A model generated the notes under the pieces. That model searched no databases. It was given only the letters and a program-made list of their open reading frames with translations, and was not told the origin of the DNA. A DNA stretch of 63,668 nt, from positions 1-63,668 of IMG/VR virus record IMGVR_UViG_3300049432_000050, one strand, 5' to 3'. Of the stretch, positions 20,049-61,703 are shown one piece after another. Each line of letters begins with the position of its first letter. Positions within the stretch are counted from its first letter, which is position 1. This DNA comes from a virus. Taxonomy: Duplodnaviria; Caudoviricetes. A program made the position numbers and the translations under genes.

Positions 20049-20141
20049 GAGCACCAGGAAAGGCGTAGACTGTTGGGAGCAACTAGAGGGCCCGCATCGC
20101 TGAGACGACCGGGCCCCGGCACACGATCACTGGAGGATCGA

Positions 20142-20939
20142 ATGCAGGACGAGCCTACCGTTCCACCTGGCTACTGCGAATGTGGATGTGGCGAGAAAGC
20201 ATCGCTGGCAGCGCGCACGCGTACTGCCACCGGTCACGTCAAGGGGCAGCCAATGCGATTCAAGATTGGCCACCAGCGCTACAACAGCAACCCGCTAGCA
20301 GAGGGGCAGCGCTTTGGGCGTCTGACCGTGCAGGCGGATCATGCGAGACCGCGCTCGGCGGACCGTATCGGTGTGCGCTGCGATTGCGGAACGGTGAAAG
20401 AGGTTGCTCTGCACAACCTGCTGCACAACACCCGGTCGTGCGGTTGCCTGCGCGACGAGCAGTCAGGCGAGCGGTCCAGACAGACCATCGTGCACGGCCA
20501 CTGCCGCAACGGCAAGGCGACGCCGACCTACGATGCATGGAAGGCCATGCTGGGCCGCTGCTCTCAGCCGAAGACGAACGGCTACCACAACTACGGGGGT
20601 CGCGGGATCGTCGTGTGCGAGCGCTGGCGGTCGTTCCCCCCCTTCCTCGAAGACATGGGCGAGAGACCCGCTGGGCATTCACTCGACCGCATCGACGTCA
20701 ACGGCAACTACGAACCGGGGAACTGCCGATGGGCAACACCGGCAGAGCAGCAAGCAAACACCCGCCGAGCGCGAGGGCTGCCAAGCAACCCCACGGTCCG
20801 CGAACTGCTGGACGATGCGGGTGTTCCTGCCGTCGTCCATGGCGCACAGGGCGTTGATCGCCGTGCTGTAGCGACGCGCGTGGCCTACCTGCTCCAGCTG
20901 CTGGCTACGCACGGCATCCCAGTGGATGGGTCAGCATGA
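20142..20939 (+). CDS. Free-standing HNH homing endonuclease
   Basis: [54 protein letters not shown]. Confidence 0.9.
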
Positions 20940-53351: not shown

Positions 53352-54839
53352 TCACGCCGGGATCGGTTCGGAATCCGGCGCATCGTCCGCGACGGCGAAC
53401 GACTCGTTGACCTCCGCTATGAGCTCATCGGGCACCCAGTAGGCGCGAAACCGGCGCGGCGTCATCGCGGTAGACGCGTCTGCCGGCGAAACCCACGGCA
53501 GCCATGAAAGCCACCGCGGCACCGTGTGCGCCTCGAACTCGTCCGCGGCCTCGTCCACCTTGACGTAGCCCACCCCCGGCAGCGACGGCGGGATCTCATC
53601 CGCTCGCGCGCCCGACATGTACGCGGTGCGGCCGAGAATCTTGCGGACCGTGTCCACGTTGTCGATGCGCAGAGCGATCTTTACGGGGATCTCGTCGCGG
53701 TCCCGCACGATCTCCTTCGTGGCGTTCTGGACGGCGCCGACGACGCTGCATCCCGGTGCGCGCCCGACGTTGATGAGTTGCCGCACCGACTCGCCGACCT
53801 TCTTATCCGCGGCGAGGACACCCTGCTCGTCGAAGAAGATGACCGTGAGAGGCCGCTCCGGCGTCGGTGTCAGCTTGCGCTCACCGCGTCCCTTCAGGTA
53901 CGGCAAGTTGTCCTTCATTCGCGTAACGCCCTTCGCGAGCAGCGCCTCGATGTCCTCGTCGGTATCCGCGAACTCAGCGAACAGATTGCGGCCCGGGAAC
54001 AACTCGACGCCGCCCTTCGCGTCCGCGACCCAAATCTCGACGGAGCCCTCCCGGATATACGGGATCAGGTGCAGGATGATGCTCCAGAACACCGAGCCCT
54101 TGCCCGCCCCCGTCTGCCCAACGACGAGGACGTGCGACCCGAGCACTGGGGCCGTAACCTTCCGCCCGCGCTCGTCGACGCCGATCGGGATGCGGCGCAG
54201 ATCCACCTCGCTCGTGGACGCCGGGATGCCGGGGAACGGGACGACGTCAGCGAGCGGGTCGTCCCCGCGGGGAAGCTCGAGCGTGACGTAGTCCGTCTGC
54301 GGGATGTCCGTCACGCGGCACTCCCGCGCGAGGAACGCTTTTGCGAGGTTCTGCGCGGTCTGCCCGTCATGCCCGACGAACTCGCGTGTCGTCTGTCCCG
54401 GCAGCACCTTCACGCGGACCGTGTCACCGGAGCGCGTGCAGGTCACCTTTGCGAGCTTCGGGACCTTGTCGAATCCGTTGTCAACGATCCCGGTGAGGTT
54501 CTGCCCAGCGAGCACGCGCTGCCACCGCCGCTCATACAGTCGCCACCTGCGGAACGCGCTGTACAGCCTGACGCCGATCAGGCCACGGTACGCCGCGAGG
54601 ACGCCCAGGCGGCCTGTTGTGCGCGCGAGGACGCGGCCCGTGATGTTCCATGCGATCAGGGCCAGGGCACCGTAGAACACGACGCCGACCGCGGCATGCA
54701 AGGTCGTCACGACCGCGAGCGCGACGAACGCGGCGAGCAGGCCGGCGCGGACCGGAAACCGGTATGCCGCGACAGCGACGATCGCGACCGTCTGACACAC
54801 AATCACGATGAGGTTCCAGATCAGGACCGCCCAATCCAT
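53352..54839 (-). CDS. FtsK/SpoIIIE-family (TraB-like) membrane DNA translocase
   Basis: N-terminal TM helices; HVLVVGQTGAGKG, DAKGGVEL, IFFDE, GRAPG...AVQ, PGVGYV. Confidence 0.9.
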   Translation of the reverse strand: MDWAVLIWNLIVIVCQTVAIVAVAAYRFPVRAGLLAAFVALAVVTTLHAAVGVVFYGALALIAWNITGRVLARTTGRLGVLAAYRGLIGVRLYSAFRRWRLYERRWQRVLAGQNLTGIVDNGFDKVPKLAKVTCTRSGDTVRVKVLPGQTTREFVGHDGQTAQNLAKAFLARECRVTDIPQTDYVTLELPRGDDPLADVVPFPGIPASTSEVDLRRIPIGVDERGRKVTAPVLGSHVLVVGQTGAGKGSVFWSIILHLIPYIREGSVEIWVADAKGGVELFPGRNLFAEFADTDEDIEALLAKGVTRMKDNLPYLKGRGERKLTPTPERPLTVIFFDEQGVLAADKKVGESVRQLINVGRAPGCSVVGAVQNATKEIVRDRDEIPVKIALRIDNVDTVRKILGRTAYMSGARADEIPPSLPGVGYVKVDEAADEFEAHTVPRWLSWLPWVSPADASTAMTPRRFRAYWVPDELIAEVNESFAVADDAPDSEPIPA

Positions 54840-56191
54840 CAGGCACCCACGTCGAAGAGGGAGCCCTGACCTGTCGCGGCGACCGCGGCGCGTGCCTGCT
54901 CGGCCTCCAGGCGCTTGACGAGCGTCATGCCGTCCGGGTGCTCAGACCACCACGCAATACGAGCCTCAGCGATCGCGACGTACTCCGGCTCGCGTTCGAT
55001 GCCGACGAAGTCAAAGCCCTCCAGCTCCGTCGCGCAGCCCGTTGTGCCGCTGCCGGCGAACGGGTCGAGCACCGTCCCGCTGGGCGGGGTGACGAGCCGC
55101 ACGAGCCAGCGCATCAGGCTCAAACTCTTAACAGTCGGATGGGTATTGCGCCGTGGCCGTGGGACGTTGGAACGGCCGGGCCGCGGCATCCTTTCGTGCA
55201 ATGTTCCGCTGGGGCGATGGTCGAATGGGTCGCTCTCGCGCTCCTCGAACCCCTCGAGTCCCGCGTTGCGCTCGGCGCTGGAACTCTTCGCGCAGTAGAA
55301 CGCGCGTCGTTCCGTGTCCTCATGCCGGTGGTCGAAGGTGGGGAAGAACCGCGACGCGCCACCCGAATCGCCCGTGCTGATGACCTTACCTATGGGTGGC
55401 GCAGGGATACCGTTGTAGCCCCCTAGACCGTAATCGCGTCGGGCGGTACCGGGATGAGTCGTCAGCGTTCCCGTCTGCTCATCCAATAAACGGACCGGGC
55501 AGTCCTCGACGCACCTGTACGCGGCGACCTCTTCGGTACCGTCAGCATCCGCGTAGCCCGCGCTCATATCGCCGTTGCGCCCAACCCCGGCCTTGAAGTC
55601 CAGCGATACGCCGGGGCTCTCGCTGCCGAACTGCGGGTTAGGCACAGCGGGGCTCGCGGACTTCACGCGTCGTGTCCCTACCGGCTCGCAACGGGGCGAG
55701 TGACTGAGGATCGTGTTCGCGGGCCAACGACCCAGGTTGGCGTTGTGGCCACCCTCGTCTCCGGCCTCACCGGCGTTCCATCCCCATCCATCAGCACGTC
55801 GTCCGCCGCTCACTGACGCCGGCACATCCTTTGACGAGCCCACCCGGCACCCGTCCACGTTCAGTGCCCCGGTCCCGCGCGCGAGGACGTTCGCGCTCAC
55901 GGTCCCGCTCAAGGGTTTGCGGGCGACGACGATCGGCTCATGCGCGGGCTTGAGAGCGGTCCCCCACCCGGCCCAGCGCTCAGCGTCGGGGGTGGCGGGC
56001 GCGGTGACGGGAACCATGCCATTTATGGTTTCCGACCGCGACGTAAAGCCATCCGTGGCACCCGTCGTTCCCTGCCCCGCGTAGGTTGCGCCGCGCGTGC
56101 CATCCGGGAACTGGGGTCGCATTCCGACGACCTCCCGCTCCACTCCCGCCGCCTTGTCGATCGCCTTGCTCACGTCCAGCGACTTAGGCGC
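54839..56191 (-). CDS. Amino-DNA methyltransferase (N6A/N4C, beta class), C-terminal part
   Basis: KSLDVSKAIDK, GWGTALKPAHEPI, GRWPAN, HPTVK, VLDPFAGSGTTG; same frame as 56192-56620. Confidence 0.88.
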   Translation of the reverse strand, partial: APKSLDVSKAIDKAAGVEREVVGMRPQFPDGTRGATYAGQGTTGATDGFTSRSETINGMVPVTAPATPDAERWAGWGTALKPAHEPIVVARKPLSGTVSANVLARGTGALNVDGCRVGSSKDVPASVSGGRRADGWGWNAGEAGDEGGHNANLGRWPANTILSHSPRCEPVGTRRVKSASPAVPNPQFGSESPGVSLDFKAGVGRNGDMSAGYADADGTEEVAAYRCVEDCPVRLLDEQTGTLTTHPGTARRDYGLGGYNGIPAPPIGKVISTGDSGGASRFFPTFDHRHEDTERRAFYCAKSSSAERNAGLEGFEERESDPFDHRPSGTLHERMPRPGRSNVPRPRRNTHPTVKSLSLMRWLVRLVTPPSGTVLDPFAGSGTTGCATELEGFDFVGIEREPEYVAIAEARIAWWSEHPDGMTLVKRLEAEQARAAVAATGQGSLFDVGA

Positions 56192-56620
56192 TCAGGGGAA
56201 GCCGCTCCCGTACAACCAGTCCAGTTCTGGTCCGAGCGACTCCCCATTGGCATCACCTCCCCCGTTCAGGTGGAGGATGCGGTCACGGATCTCGAAACCG
56301 GCGAGGCGGATCGCGATGCACAGCAGGTCATACGTCCTAGTGCCCCCGAAGGCAACGAGGTGCGCCCCGGGTTTCAGGACGCGGTAGACCTCTCGCCAGT
56401 ACGCGGGTCCGGGCACAAAGCTATCCCAGGAACTCCCCATGAATCCATTGCCGCGATGGACGTAGTCGTCTCCGGCGAGCCAGTGCGTCAAGACCTCCGC
56501 GATGTCCGGCTCACGGCTCAGGCCGTAGGGCGGATCAGTCACGCACGCGTCAACACTCGCTTCGGGCATCGCGGCCATCGCCTCGACGCAGTTGCCGTGG
56601 ATGATGCGCGAGCCCATCAC
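56192..56620 (-). CDS. Amino-DNA methyltransferase, N-terminal part ending at an in-frame TGA
   Basis: VTDPPYG, RVLKPG, GFEIRD, WLYGSGFP*. Confidence 0.88.
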   Translation of the reverse strand: MMGSRIIHGNCVEAMAAMPEASVDACVTDPPYGLSREPDIAEVLTHWLAGDDYVHRGNGFMGSSWDSFVPGPAYWREVYRVLKPGAHLVAFGGTRTYDLLCIAIRLAGFEIRDRILHLNGGGDANGESLGPELDWLYGSGFP

Positions 56621-57021
56621 TCGGCCTCCCTCGCGAGCCGGCGAAGCTCCTTCTCGGCGCGGTCCGCCTTGCGTGCCTGCTCATCGCACTCCCCGGCAAA
56701 CCTGTCCGCCTCCTTCGCGGCGAACCGGGCAGCCGACGCCACGCACCGCCGCAACGCCTGCGCGCACCGGCCGTGCGCCGCGACAACCAACGCGAGCGCG
56801 TGATCCGCGTCCAACACCAGATCAGCGTCCGCGGCATCATCGTCGAACTCGCGCACAGCCAGGTACGCCCTGTCCATGCTCGTCCGGGCACGCTTCAGCG
56901 CCGCGTGCGCCCGCTGCCGAGCCCCAGCGCACCGTCGCTTCAGCGCTACCGCCTGAGCCTGCGCACGCCCCTCGTCACGCTGCAGGAACGCGGCCTGCGC
57001 CTGCTGGCGCGCGTCAGGCAT
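56617..57021 (-). CDS. Hypothetical Ala-rich helical protein
   Basis: GGGGAG RBS; TGATG and GTGA coupling. Confidence 0.65.
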   Translation of the reverse strand: MPDARQQAQAAFLQRDEGRAQAQAVALKRRCAGARQRAHAALKRARTSMDRAYLAVREFDDDAADADLVLDADHALALVVAAHGRCAQALRRCVASAARFAAKEADRFAGECDEQARKADRAEKELRRLAREAE

Positions 57022-57159: not shown

Positions 57160-57654
57160 CTACTCGTCGCGGACGATCACGAACTCTGCGCCGATCTTGC
57201 GCTTCGTCAGGAGAGGGTCGCCGTACTTCTTGAAGCGCTGGTGATGCTTCCCACAGAGGGCGAGCCTGCGTGCCGGCTTCCCGCAAACTGAGCACATGGT
57301 GCGCGGCCGCGCTTTCTTGCCGTGGCGCCAGTGCCAGCGCAGATGGCAGGAGCCGCAGAGGGTTGCGATGTTCTCCTCGACGTTGTTCGACGGGTCCTCG
57401 TCGCGGTGATGCGTGTGCAGGCCCTCGATCGCGCCGCACTCCTCGCAAGCTCGTCCGCGTAGCTTCTTCGCTCGGGCGCGGTTCCCAGCGAGACTGACAA
57501 TGTCCTGTCGCATGCCGTCGGCCATGCACCGCTCGTCGCAGTAGATGCGTGCCAGAAAGCGGGTGCGGTCCTCCAGCCGACCGTTGAAGCGCTTGCGGAT
57601 AAGCTGCTCCCCGCATGCGGCGCAGTGCTTGACCGGATCGGGCTTCGCCTTCAT
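57160..57654 (-). CDS. HNH homing endonuclease
   Basis: CAACG, CEECG, HTHHRDEDPSNN..ENIATLCGSCH, LCGKHHQR..KYGDP; TATGAT 8 nt upstream of ATG. Confidence 0.9.
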   Translation of the reverse strand: MKAKPDPVKHCAACGEQLIRKRFNGRLEDRTRFLARIYCDERCMADGMRQDIVSLAGNRARAKKLRGRACEECGAIEGLHTHHRDEDPSNNVEENIATLCGSCHLRWHWRHGKKARPRTMCSVCGKPARRLALCGKHHQRFKKYGDPLLTKRKIGAEFVIVRDE

Positions 57655-61217: not shown

Positions 61218-61703
61218 GTGCAAGCAGACCAGTCGAAGACGATCGCTGAGCGCCGCAAGTGGTACGCCGACGTCTACCTCAAGTCGTCGCACTGGCGCCG
61301 GACTCGGCTCGCGGCGATTGAGCGTGCTGGCCGTCGCTGCAAGCGGTGCCGCGACACGCCGCCCGTCCTGCACGTGCATCACCGGTCGTACGCGCGGCTG
61401 TGGTGCGAGCTGCCCGGCGATCTGGAGGTGCTGTGCGAGGACTGCCACCGGCGGGCGCATGGTGTGAGCGCGCAGGGCAAGAGCCCGAAGGCTCGGCGGG
61501 GCGGTGGCGCAAAGCGTCGGGCGGAGCGGTTGCGGCGGGATGGAACGAGCGTCCTGCTCGCCATCGATGAGCGGCCCCGGTCGACGGCGGACGTCGCAAC
61601 GCTCGCGGGGATCACGCCGGAGCGCGCCATCCGTGCCCTGCACGTTCTGCTCGCGCAGGGGAAGGTCCGGCATCTGGAGGCTCGTGGCGTCTGGTGGGAG
61701 TGA
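61218..61703 (+). CDS. HNH endonuclease with C-terminal winged helix (probably leaderless)
   Basis: CKRC, LHVHHRSY, DLEVLCEDCH; STADVATLAGIT; TAGAAT 6 nt before GTG. Confidence 0.8.
   Translation: MQADQSKTIAERRKWYADVYLKSSHWRRTRLAAIERAGRRCKRCRDTPPVLHVHHRSYARLWCELPGDLEVLCEDCHRRAHGVSAQGKSPKARRGGGAKRRAERLRRDGTSVLLAIDERPRSTADVATLAGITPERAIRALHVLLAQGKVRHLEARGVWWE

Follow-up and report, generated by a model that had tools for sequence, protein, structure and literature searches.

Is an in-frame stop codon within an invariant loop of a phage DNA methyltransferase gene a site that ribosomes are programmed to pass, or does it mark a gene that has recently been broken? This question is raised by a minus-strand gene of the window analyzed in this work, i.e., the complete IMG/VR virus record IMGVR_UViG_3300049432_000050 (63,668 bases; linear class, approximately 75% complete according to CheckV). 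The region 54839-56620 (-) translates in a single frame, 594 positions long, which contains one stop internally (GSGFP*APKSLDVSK) in addition to the one at its end, and in the list of open reading frames (ORFs) it appears as 56192..56620 (142 amino acids (aa), GTG start) and 54839..56173 (444 aa, GTG start). The initial annotation described nine extra nucleotides (nt) between two proline codons readable by one tRNA, and proposed that a minimal ribosomal hop over the stop restores the consensus protein and could tune the methylase level. The anatomy was confirmed by both the sequence and the alignment: the 9 nt are extra, they are flanked by CCC and CCT with the UGA right after the first of them, and both halves of the gene are intact and in frame. 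As to its meaning, the explanation that we favor, with moderate confidence, is a recent disabling insertion of 9 nt at an insertion-prone spot, with at most an incidental leak at a shifty stop resembling that of the Escherichia coli pheL gene.

A methyltransferase gene interrupted by nine nucleotides

On the minus strand, the interrupted region reads TGG TTG TAC GGG AGC GGC TTC CCC TGA GCG CCT AAG TCG CTG GAC GTG AGC AAG. It was compared with 29 homologues (46-63% identity to the read-through protein), picked for coverage of the N-terminus from the 120 listed. All 29 read GF-PKS, and the window alone has three additional codons, i.e., exactly 9 extra nt, the removal of which restores the consensus. 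The consensus of the 30 sequences is WLYGSGFPKSLDVSKAIDKAAGAEREVVG, so the family motif given in the initial annotation is correct. Residues P145, K146, and S147 are invariant in both alignments, and it is among these three that the insert falls. As there is a CC repeat at both borders, the 9-nt insert may be placed anywhere within 56186-56197.

The affiliation of the gene is clear from sequence and fold comparisons. The read-through protein matches the PF01555 (N6_N4_Mtase) profile with 89.4 bits (cut-off 26.7), and the stop splits this match into an N-terminal piece covering profile positions 1-79 (28.9 bits) and a C-terminal piece covering positions 159-220 (64.4 bits). A single uninterrupted reading frame, which is expected of a PF01555 enzyme, is broken here by the TGA at 56192-56194. 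The order of motifs is that of the beta permutation, with DPPY (residues 29-32) preceding DPFAGSGTT (approximately residues 519-527), both located in invariant alignment columns. A profile search of the PDB gave CcrM (6pbd, E = 4.4e-31) and M.RsrI (E = 1.9e-17), and the top ranks of a Foldseek search were occupied by CcrM, M.BceJIV, TTHA0409, and M.RsrI (entries 6pbd, 9c3u, 8urk, 2zie, and 1nw8). Thus, like CcrM, M.RsrI, and M.BceJIV, the predicted enzyme has motif IV (DPPY) near the N-terminus and motif I (FxGxG) near the C-terminus, whereas it differs from the solved CcrM-type enzymes in being interrupted by a stop and in having a large variable middle region (approximately 300 residues). 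In the alignment with CcrM, W-R-K-S-N-P-M stands opposite W-L-Y-G-S-G-F, which places the cut inside the catalytic fold and not at a domain border. The predicted structural model (mean pLDDT 61.9) falls below 50 in the junction region (residues 115-147) and is uninformative on the tolerance of three extra residues.

The GC content of the window is 65-72% throughout, its gene set (large terminase, portal, major head, and tape measure) is of the siphovirus type, and the sequencing runs sharing words with it are labelled as soil metagenomes, no RNA run being listed among them. Taken together, the phage is siphovirus-like, from soil, and high in GC, and its gene is predicted to encode an orphan DNA methyltransferase of the beta class (N6/N4); this gene is accessory rather than essential.

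Both halves were checked for decay, as the initial annotation had suggested. From the columns conserved in at least 90% of the other sequences, the window departs in 1 of 37 before the stop and in 2 of 81 after it, which is within the ranges found for the 29 intact homologues (0-8 and 0-13, respectively). The GC content at third codon positions (0.80 in the N-terminal and 0.78 in the C-terminal piece) is of the coding type. Since neither half shows decay, the lesion would be recent.

Variation in the architecture of the family was also observed. The 737-aa protein P0003 carries an insertion of approximately 200 residues (residues ~130-330) just before G-Q-G-F-P-K-S, at the position occupied in the window by a 19-residue GGDA loop, the length of which is highly variable across the family. 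Two other proteins, P0315 and P0402, consist of the C-terminal module only, starting near W-x-G-W-x-T-A-L-K-P after about 30 unrelated N-terminal residues; these may be naturally separate subunits. Furthermore, in Fishburnevirus-type mycobacteriophages (L123, Mycobacterium phage Jebeks 35945-37971; hits H1-H15) the homologous methylase is annotated as three or four ORFs (398, 30, 68, and 123 aa), and the break lies near the C-terminal S-adenosyl methionine (AdoMet) motif, i.e., elsewhere than in the window.

Distribution of the insert among relatives

The same insert was looked for in homologues and was found in none of those with readable DNA (IMG/VR, genome contigs, and the 29 aligned homologues). 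In IMG/VR, a degenerate pattern composed of Y-G-S/T-G-F-P, 9 bases, and K-S/T-L-D-V gave no locus, and the same pattern without the 9 bases gave at least 120 canonical loci, in which the Pro codon at the landing position was CCG (89), CCC (17), CCT (8), or CCA (6). Scans of the same database for inserts of 3-15 nt at the junction yielded four loci, all of them unrelated chance matches. For the relatives P0122 and P0124 (described below), 107 IMG/VR loci were fetched, of which 73 were canonical, 18 were pattern mis-hits, and 16 were without the motif; re-reading by eye of 10 non-scoring loci showed 9 to be canonical, the remaining one (L242) breaking down later for other reasons. Among genome contigs, 80 loci with a related N-terminal protein were fetched and their junctions were read in batches of 58 and 21, with no interruption wherever the junction was readable. 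In 8 of the 58 the pattern matched upstream and the canonical GFPK was visible in the text; the junctions of L151, L184, L198, and L189 (misaligned) and of L194 (which ends at the contig end) were not read.

Protein P0272, which belongs to the same loop sub-clade as the window's protein (see below), is likewise uninterrupted (...GGGDAAESLGPELAWMYGSGFPKSLDVGK). In contigs of relatives from the soil runs X2 and X4, the alignment with the window ends at 56185 and continues as the reverse complement of ...TGGCTGTACGGCTCGGGCTTCCCG, i.e., as a canonical junction (TTCCCG|AAG). A locus search with the full protein gave a single 46%-identical locus in viral contigs and none in genome or metagenome contigs, pattern scans for a stop after GFP and for the sub-clade loop gave unrelated chance loci only, protein scans with P0122 and P0124 gave no locus above 68% identity, and the best match in a tblastn search of P0122 and P0139 against isolated phages was at approximately 69%.

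It is also worth mentioning that strong DNA-level conservation of the window segment 56096-56185, which codes for KSLDVSKAIDKAAGVEREVVG, causes contigs from other soil phages to accumulate there, and this segment is likely a hotspot of recombination and of assembly breaks.

Recoding signals at the interruption

In gene 60 of phage T4, a gap of 50 nt is bypassed with an efficiency of 30-50%, with the involvement of a take-off stem-loop and a nascent-peptide signal, and the gap is conserved in related phages. The window resembles this system in its matched take-off and landing codons with the stop right after the take-off codon (CCC UGA GCG CCU), and it follows from the wobble rules that a single tRNA-Pro could decode both CCC and CCU. 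It differs in that the gap is of 9 nt only, it is not conserved in related genes, a stimulatory mRNA structure at the take-off site is unsupported, and there is a competing, overlapping re-pairing site. Moreover, the matched Pro codons correspond to the 2-nt CC repeat at the borders of the insert, for which we estimate a chance of about 1 in 10 at this base composition.

As regards the mRNA structure, the 8-bp stem suggested in the initial annotation stood in part. Its arms, AGCGGCTT (56206-56199) and AAGTCGCT (56185-56178), are indeed complementary (seven Watson-Crick pairs and one G.U pair), but the stem is absent from the minimum free energy folds of the 71-nt and 35-nt contexts, and these folds are no better than those of shuffled sequences (z = 0.50, with 138/200 shuffles being equally or more stable, and z = 1.19, with 186/200, respectively). 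The arms represent codon choice for S-G-F and K-S-L, and hence the stem recurs in canonical relatives: among the matches listed, they pair 8/8 in 4 and at least 7/8 in 21 of the 120 canonical IMG/VR homologues. Similarly, the upstream GGAG, derived from the G-S codons, is present in 14 of these 120. A programmed hop is thus supported by neither conservation nor structure. The proposal of a minimal stop-hop tuning the methylase gained nothing from the testable evidence, given that no shared insert was found, the hairpin is unremarkable, and the CC repeat may be due to chance.

The stop itself is of a particular kind. The E. coli pheL gene ends with UUC_CCC_UGA, at which 15% +1 frameshifting was measured in E. 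coli K-12, compared with at most 2% for CCC_UGA in general, the Phe codon before Pro being crucial; readthrough and tmRNA tagging were also seen, and the frameshifting was judged incidental by the authors (Gurvich et al., NAR 2011, PMC3082878). The window has the identical UUC CCC UGA, the same Phe-Pro nascent end, and peptidyl-tRNA-Pro in the P site facing UGA, so a pause in this state would be expected if the host behaves alike. The host in question, at 68% GC, is not an enterobacterium. Unlike pheL, where the stop is the natural end of a leader-peptide gene, the stop of the window lies within a coding sequence, and its +1 frame (overlapping CCU, then GAG CGC CUA AGU CGC UGG ACG UGA) reaches a dead end after 7 codons. 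The product of such a shift would be readable as GSGFPERLSRWT, distinct from GSGFPK (hop) and GSGFPxAPK (readthrough). As the +1 CCU is the nearest re-pairing site, a +9 hop must compete with the +1 slip, release, and readthrough. Nevertheless, a low-level, unprogrammed hop or UGA readthrough is mechanistically plausible.

Short bypasses have been proposed for actinophages. In the terminase gene g6/7 of the Streptomyces phage phiHau3, a junction peptide spanning a 10-base block was found upon expression in E. coli; the block starts with the rare UUA and shifts the frame, the gene it interrupts is essential, two prophages show the same feature, and +5/+6 hops and a two-codon hop are cited (Antonov et al., RNA Biol 2023, PMC10732093). 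Common to phiHau3 and the window are an actinophage-type genome, a block in the range of 7-10 nt, flanks which are adjacent in relatives without the block, and a junction in a highly conserved protein motif, the consensus of which is restored by block removal. The differences are that the A-site codon of the window is the stop UGA and not UUA, its block is in frame, its gene is accessory, and no relative was shown to share the block; the sole TTA of the gene is located 235 codons downstream of the stop.

Other means of decoding UGA were also considered. TGA ends 64 of the 94 crude ORFs of the window and is therefore an ordinary stop there, on which ground an alternative code with UGA as a sense codon was rejected. 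An Rfam E-value scan of 55800-56600 gave one weak, irrelevant match and no selenocysteine or other UGA-recoding element, and the window contains no tRNA genes; recoding by such an element and a phage-borne suppressor tRNA were dropped.

Relatives ending at the junction

A search with the 142-residue N-terminal piece against proteins of 78-249 residues listed 120 proteins, six of which end exactly at ...GFP, i.e., the window's own P0121, together with P0122, P0124, P0125, P0127, and P0128. Another protein, P0242, taken from the cluster listing as a cluster mate of P0124 and present on 17 contigs, also ends with ...GFP. The five proteins found by the search are 64-86% identical to the N-terminal half (P0122, on a 21,257-base contig, 86%; P0124, on 7 contigs, 72%). 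All of the GFP-ending proteins share an extra loop, GG(D/E)A...LGPEL, just before the motif, and a further five loop-bearing proteins are two residues shorter at this end (...YGSG). No C-terminal partner of at least 326 residues was found for the GFP-ending proteins among the 120 listed homologues from which the 29 aligned ones were picked, the only protein there lacking the N-terminal part being P0001.

The exact ending ...YGSG was found in 21 of the 120 listed short N-terminal proteins, which come from many lineages and sources, some of them recorded on as many as 28 contigs, with lengths reaching 22 kb (P0123, P0126, P0130, P0133, P0134, P0137, P0139-P0142, P0145, P0146, P0151, P0152, P0156, P0181, P0185, P0212, P0215, P0227, and P0232). 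Stops or introns were considered as the cause of these endings and dropped, as L126, the closest genomic relative, which is 94% identical to the YGSG-ending P0259, continues into FPKSLDVGK. The YGSG-ending proteins are thus probably derived from cut contigs; the repeat-like, conserved 90-base stretch after the junction can break assemblies.

An insertion-prone spot

In gp101 of Mycobacterium phage Lilac (L313:283-2487), the same motif is interrupted by an intein (...WLYG|CLTADTEVL...ITGN|SGFPKSLDVSK), and among 418 proteins six more (P0132, P0192, P0333, P0338, P0404, and P0411) have an intein starting after W-x-Y-G, which defines a recurrent intein site of the form W-x-Y-G|C-L-x-x-D-T-E...N|S-G-F-P-K-S. 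An intein at another conserved site (GFMGK|C...GN|SWDSF) was observed in P0100. The window and the Lilac allele have in common that W-x-Y-G-S-G-F-P-K-S is the target of inserted DNA; they differ in that the Lilac insert, located after Y-G (two codons upstream), is of approximately 330 residues and is removed by protein splicing, whereas the 9 nt of the window encode no such element. Small inserts occur as well: P0031 (935 aa) reads GFP-PS-KS and P0093 (788 aa, on 8 contigs) reads GFP-SL-KS, i.e., both have two extra residues at the P|K position affected in the window.

In the absence of the insert, the site would be the 3-nt Pro-codon loop of the 8-bp inverted repeat. Based on these sequence features, i.e., a short inverted-repeat loop two codons downstream of a recurrent intein site, the spot is insertion-prone. 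For the 9 nt themselves no local direct or inverted template was found (the best match, 7/9, was reached by 591 of 1000 shuffled queries), and an origin by local duplication or template switch was rejected as no better than shuffles. The 12-mer CCCTGAGCGCCT has no second exact occurrence in the window, and the possibility that the insert is a copy of a repeated element was rejected. Imprecise repair at the hairpin tip or near a homing-endonuclease target is our guess as to the origin.

Evaluation of the alternative explanations

Under the favored explanation, the event would have been an in-frame insertion of 9 nt, bringing a UGA between the Pro and Lys codons of the invariant W-x-Y-G-S-G-F-P-K-S loop. 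Ribosomes starting at GTG 56620 would mostly terminate after ...GSGFP and release a 142-residue fragment, in which the catalytic DPPY is kept and the AdoMet-binding motif is absent; with most products truncated, the gene would be off or nearly off. Termination at UUC_CCC_UGA is inherently inefficient, so that a small fraction of the ribosomes may take other routes: they could slip by +1 to CCU and reach the dead end, read through UGA to give GFP-x-A-PKS, or let tRNA-Pro re-pair with the CCU 9 nt downstream to give the consensus protein. We take these routes to be incidental and not a selected device, and we infer that the product is truncated, the leak low, and the event recent.

Several observations weigh against this explanation. 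The intactness of both halves equally fits a maintained function, and the full 8/8 pairing of its arms puts the window in a small group of sequences (4 of the 120 canonical homologues listed show such pairing). The support for the sequence comes from assemblies that may represent one sample. Above all, six other proteins of the same sub-clade (P0122, P0124, P0242, P0125, P0127, and P0128) end with ...GFP, and among the motif-ending proteins listed this ending is confined to the loop sub-clade (6 vs 4 within it, 0 vs 17 outside it; Fisher p = 7e-4, and p = 2e-3 without the window's own protein). If these endings were real stops, the interruption would be long-standing and maintained, contrary to what is expected of a dead gene; against this stand P0272 of the sub-clade, which reads straight through, the lack of a matching C-terminal partner among the homologues listed, and the probable origin of the YGSG endings from cut contigs. 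The initial annotation had itself listed the right alternatives (readthrough, a second start, and a recent inactivating insertion). Selected low-level recoding would mean that the insert is retained for the sake of the full-length enzyme that a small and tunable fraction of the ribosomes produces, either by a hop of peptidyl-tRNA-Pro from CCC over UGA GCG to CCU (exact consensus) or by near-cognate decoding of UGA (GFP-x-A-PKS). This agrees with the flanking of the UGA by take-off and landing Pro codons, with the intact halves and the GFP-ending relatives, with the documented poor termination, frameshifting, readthrough, and tmRNA tagging at UUC_CCC_UGA (PMC3082878), and with the bypasses of 7-10-nt inserts proposed for terminase genes of Streptomyces phages (PMC10732093); P0031 and P0093, otherwise whole, suggest that the loop may tolerate extra residues. 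However, the insert is found in no relative with readable DNA and lies inside the invariant P145, K146, and S147, P0272 is uninterrupted, the hairpin is unsupported, the overlapping +1 CCU is nearer for re-pairing and opens a frame that is closed 7 codons later, and the gene is accessory, unlike the essential T4 gene 60 or terminase, which makes selected recoding unlikely. It is quite unlikely that the interruption is a maintained feature of the whole 'GGDA...LGPEL' loop sub-clade, be it a stop-hop or readthrough at UUC_CCC_UGA or a switch based on gain and loss of a short insert at a DNA hairpin tip.

A related possibility is an on/off polymorphism resembling phase variation, in which a hypermutable site at the tip of the inverted repeat would exist as insert-bearing (off) and insert-free (on) alleles. 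Three independent small inserts at the same P|K position (window, P0031, and P0093) and the 3-nt loop of the insert-free site speak for it, and assembly graphs would branch at such a site, which would explain why GFP-ending proteins of the sub-clade are found on many contigs; but no variant without the 9 nt was reported in run X1 (although rare variants are lost from contigs), no further insert at this position turned up in IMG/VR, and reversible slippage is hard to picture for 9 nt that are neither a repeat unit nor a duplication. We regard this as improbable. A two-piece enzyme, in which a C-terminal fragment translated from a restart at GTG 56173 or ATG 56122 would join the N-terminal one to form an active methylase, as in methyltransferases that are split naturally or were bisected artificially, is very improbable. 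Public gene callers have recorded the 427-aa product (P0001), its ATG is preceded at 8 nt by the strong Shine-Dalgarno-like GGGAGG, proteins with the C-terminal module only exist (P0315 and P0402), and fragment complementation and the natural two-polypeptide C5 methylases M.AquI and M.EcoHK31I are described (PMC3404938, PMC2836561). Against a two-piece enzyme, neither restart retains the invariant P-K-S, K152, D155, and R162 are additionally absent from the ATG product, a conserved segment of 20 residues would be missing from both pieces, and the cut falls inside the catalytic fold rather than at a domain border; in addition, GGGAGG simply results from the conserved E-R-E-V codons, and P0001 is the only one of the 150 best representatives for the C-terminal piece that starts at the junction. 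The GTG at 56173, named in the initial annotation, does exist in the ORF list, with no Shine-Dalgarno-like sequence just upstream. The least probable of the explanations is an artefact of assembly or sequencing, or a minority variant raised to consensus. The record is a metagenome assembly with a depth of approximately 12x, and the conserved 90-nt segment of the methylase is repeat-like in soil data (in X2 the depth is 383 at 56096-56179 vs 0-190 in the neighboring bins). However, a Logan contig of run X1 (47,792 nt, depth 12.2) spans 54500-57000 with 0 differences and 0 gaps, so that two assemblies agree base for base across 2.5 kb (X1 is possibly the source sample of the window, i.e., a second assembly and not an independent sample, and contigs drop rare variants). 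A chimeric path could not make a non-duplicative 9-nt insert matching no relative, and no interruption is present in the large phage genes that were called (terminase, portal, major head, and tape measure).

Organization of the locus and gene neighborhood

The features of the locus are summarized in Table 1. The HNH endonuclease-like gene upstream gave no Pfam match at E <= 0.001, and the FtsK/SpoIIIE-like gene downstream matches PF01580 with 19.9 bits, i.e., under its cut-off of 24. Three HNH endonuclease-like genes were indicated by PHROG in the window, at 57163-57654 (-), 61218-61700 (+), and 20073-20936 (+); free-standing homing endonucleases are often neighbors of the gene they cut. The TTA codon of the C-terminal piece is one of only 4 TTA codons in the 94 crude ORFs, and in a Streptomyces-like host TTA codons make expression dependent on the bldA tRNA.

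Table 1. Features of the interrupted methyltransferase locus and its neighboring genes (positions in the window).
Feature	Position	Strand	Details
N-terminal methyltransferase piece	56195..56620	-	142 codons from GTG 56620-56618; motif IV DPPY at residues 29-32; ends ...WLYGSGFP
In-frame TGA stop	56192..56194	-	sequence reading, ORF list, and translation
9 extra nt, written TGA GCG CCT	56186..56194	-	alignment with 29 homologues, none having the extra nt
CCC Pro codon, proposed take-off	56195..56197	-	with TTC before and TGA after gives UUC_CCC_UGA
CCT Pro codon, proposed landing site	56186..56188	-	followed by AAG TCG (K S) of the consensus
C-terminal piece, same frame	54839..56191	-	450 codons and stop 54839-54841; variable target-recognition region and motif I DPFAGSGTT
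Inverted repeat AGCGGCTT / AAGTCGCT	56178..56206	-	codons for S-G-F and K-S-L
GTG, first possible restart codon	56171..56173	-	444-aa product VSKAID...
GGGAGG (56136-56131), 8 nt, ATG (56122-56120)	56120..56136	-	most plausible restart; 427-aa product
TTA Leu codon within the conserved CPVRLLDEQ motif of the C-terminal piece	55487..55489	-	235 codons downstream of the in-frame stop
HNH endonuclease-like gene	57163..57654	-	two genes upstream of the methylase, same minus-strand block; phrog_1271, E = 2.6e-9
FtsK/SpoIIIE-like gene	53352..54839	-	directly downstream, start overlaps the methylase stop; phrog_1358, E = 4.1e-21

Significance of the interruption

If the favored explanation is true, a common phage methylase is represented here by an ordinary nonsense allele, which serves mainly as a caution: a stop with matching flanking codons and a stem derived from coding constraints can mimic programmed bypassing. 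The site is also a clean natural test case, in which the pheL shifty stop is reproduced exactly and a cognate landing codon follows at 9 nt, and its three possible products (truncated, with three additional residues, and consensus) are separable by mass. The recurrent inteins and small inserts indicate that, in this very large protein family, the motif is a hotspot of DNA insertion. If, instead, the interruption were a maintained feature of the loop sub-clade, phage DNA methyltransferases would have their first example of control by a conserved stop-hop or indel switch, actinophage-like genomes would have only their second proposed short-gap bypass system, and the interruption would act as a translational or mutational throttle on an anti-restriction methylase.

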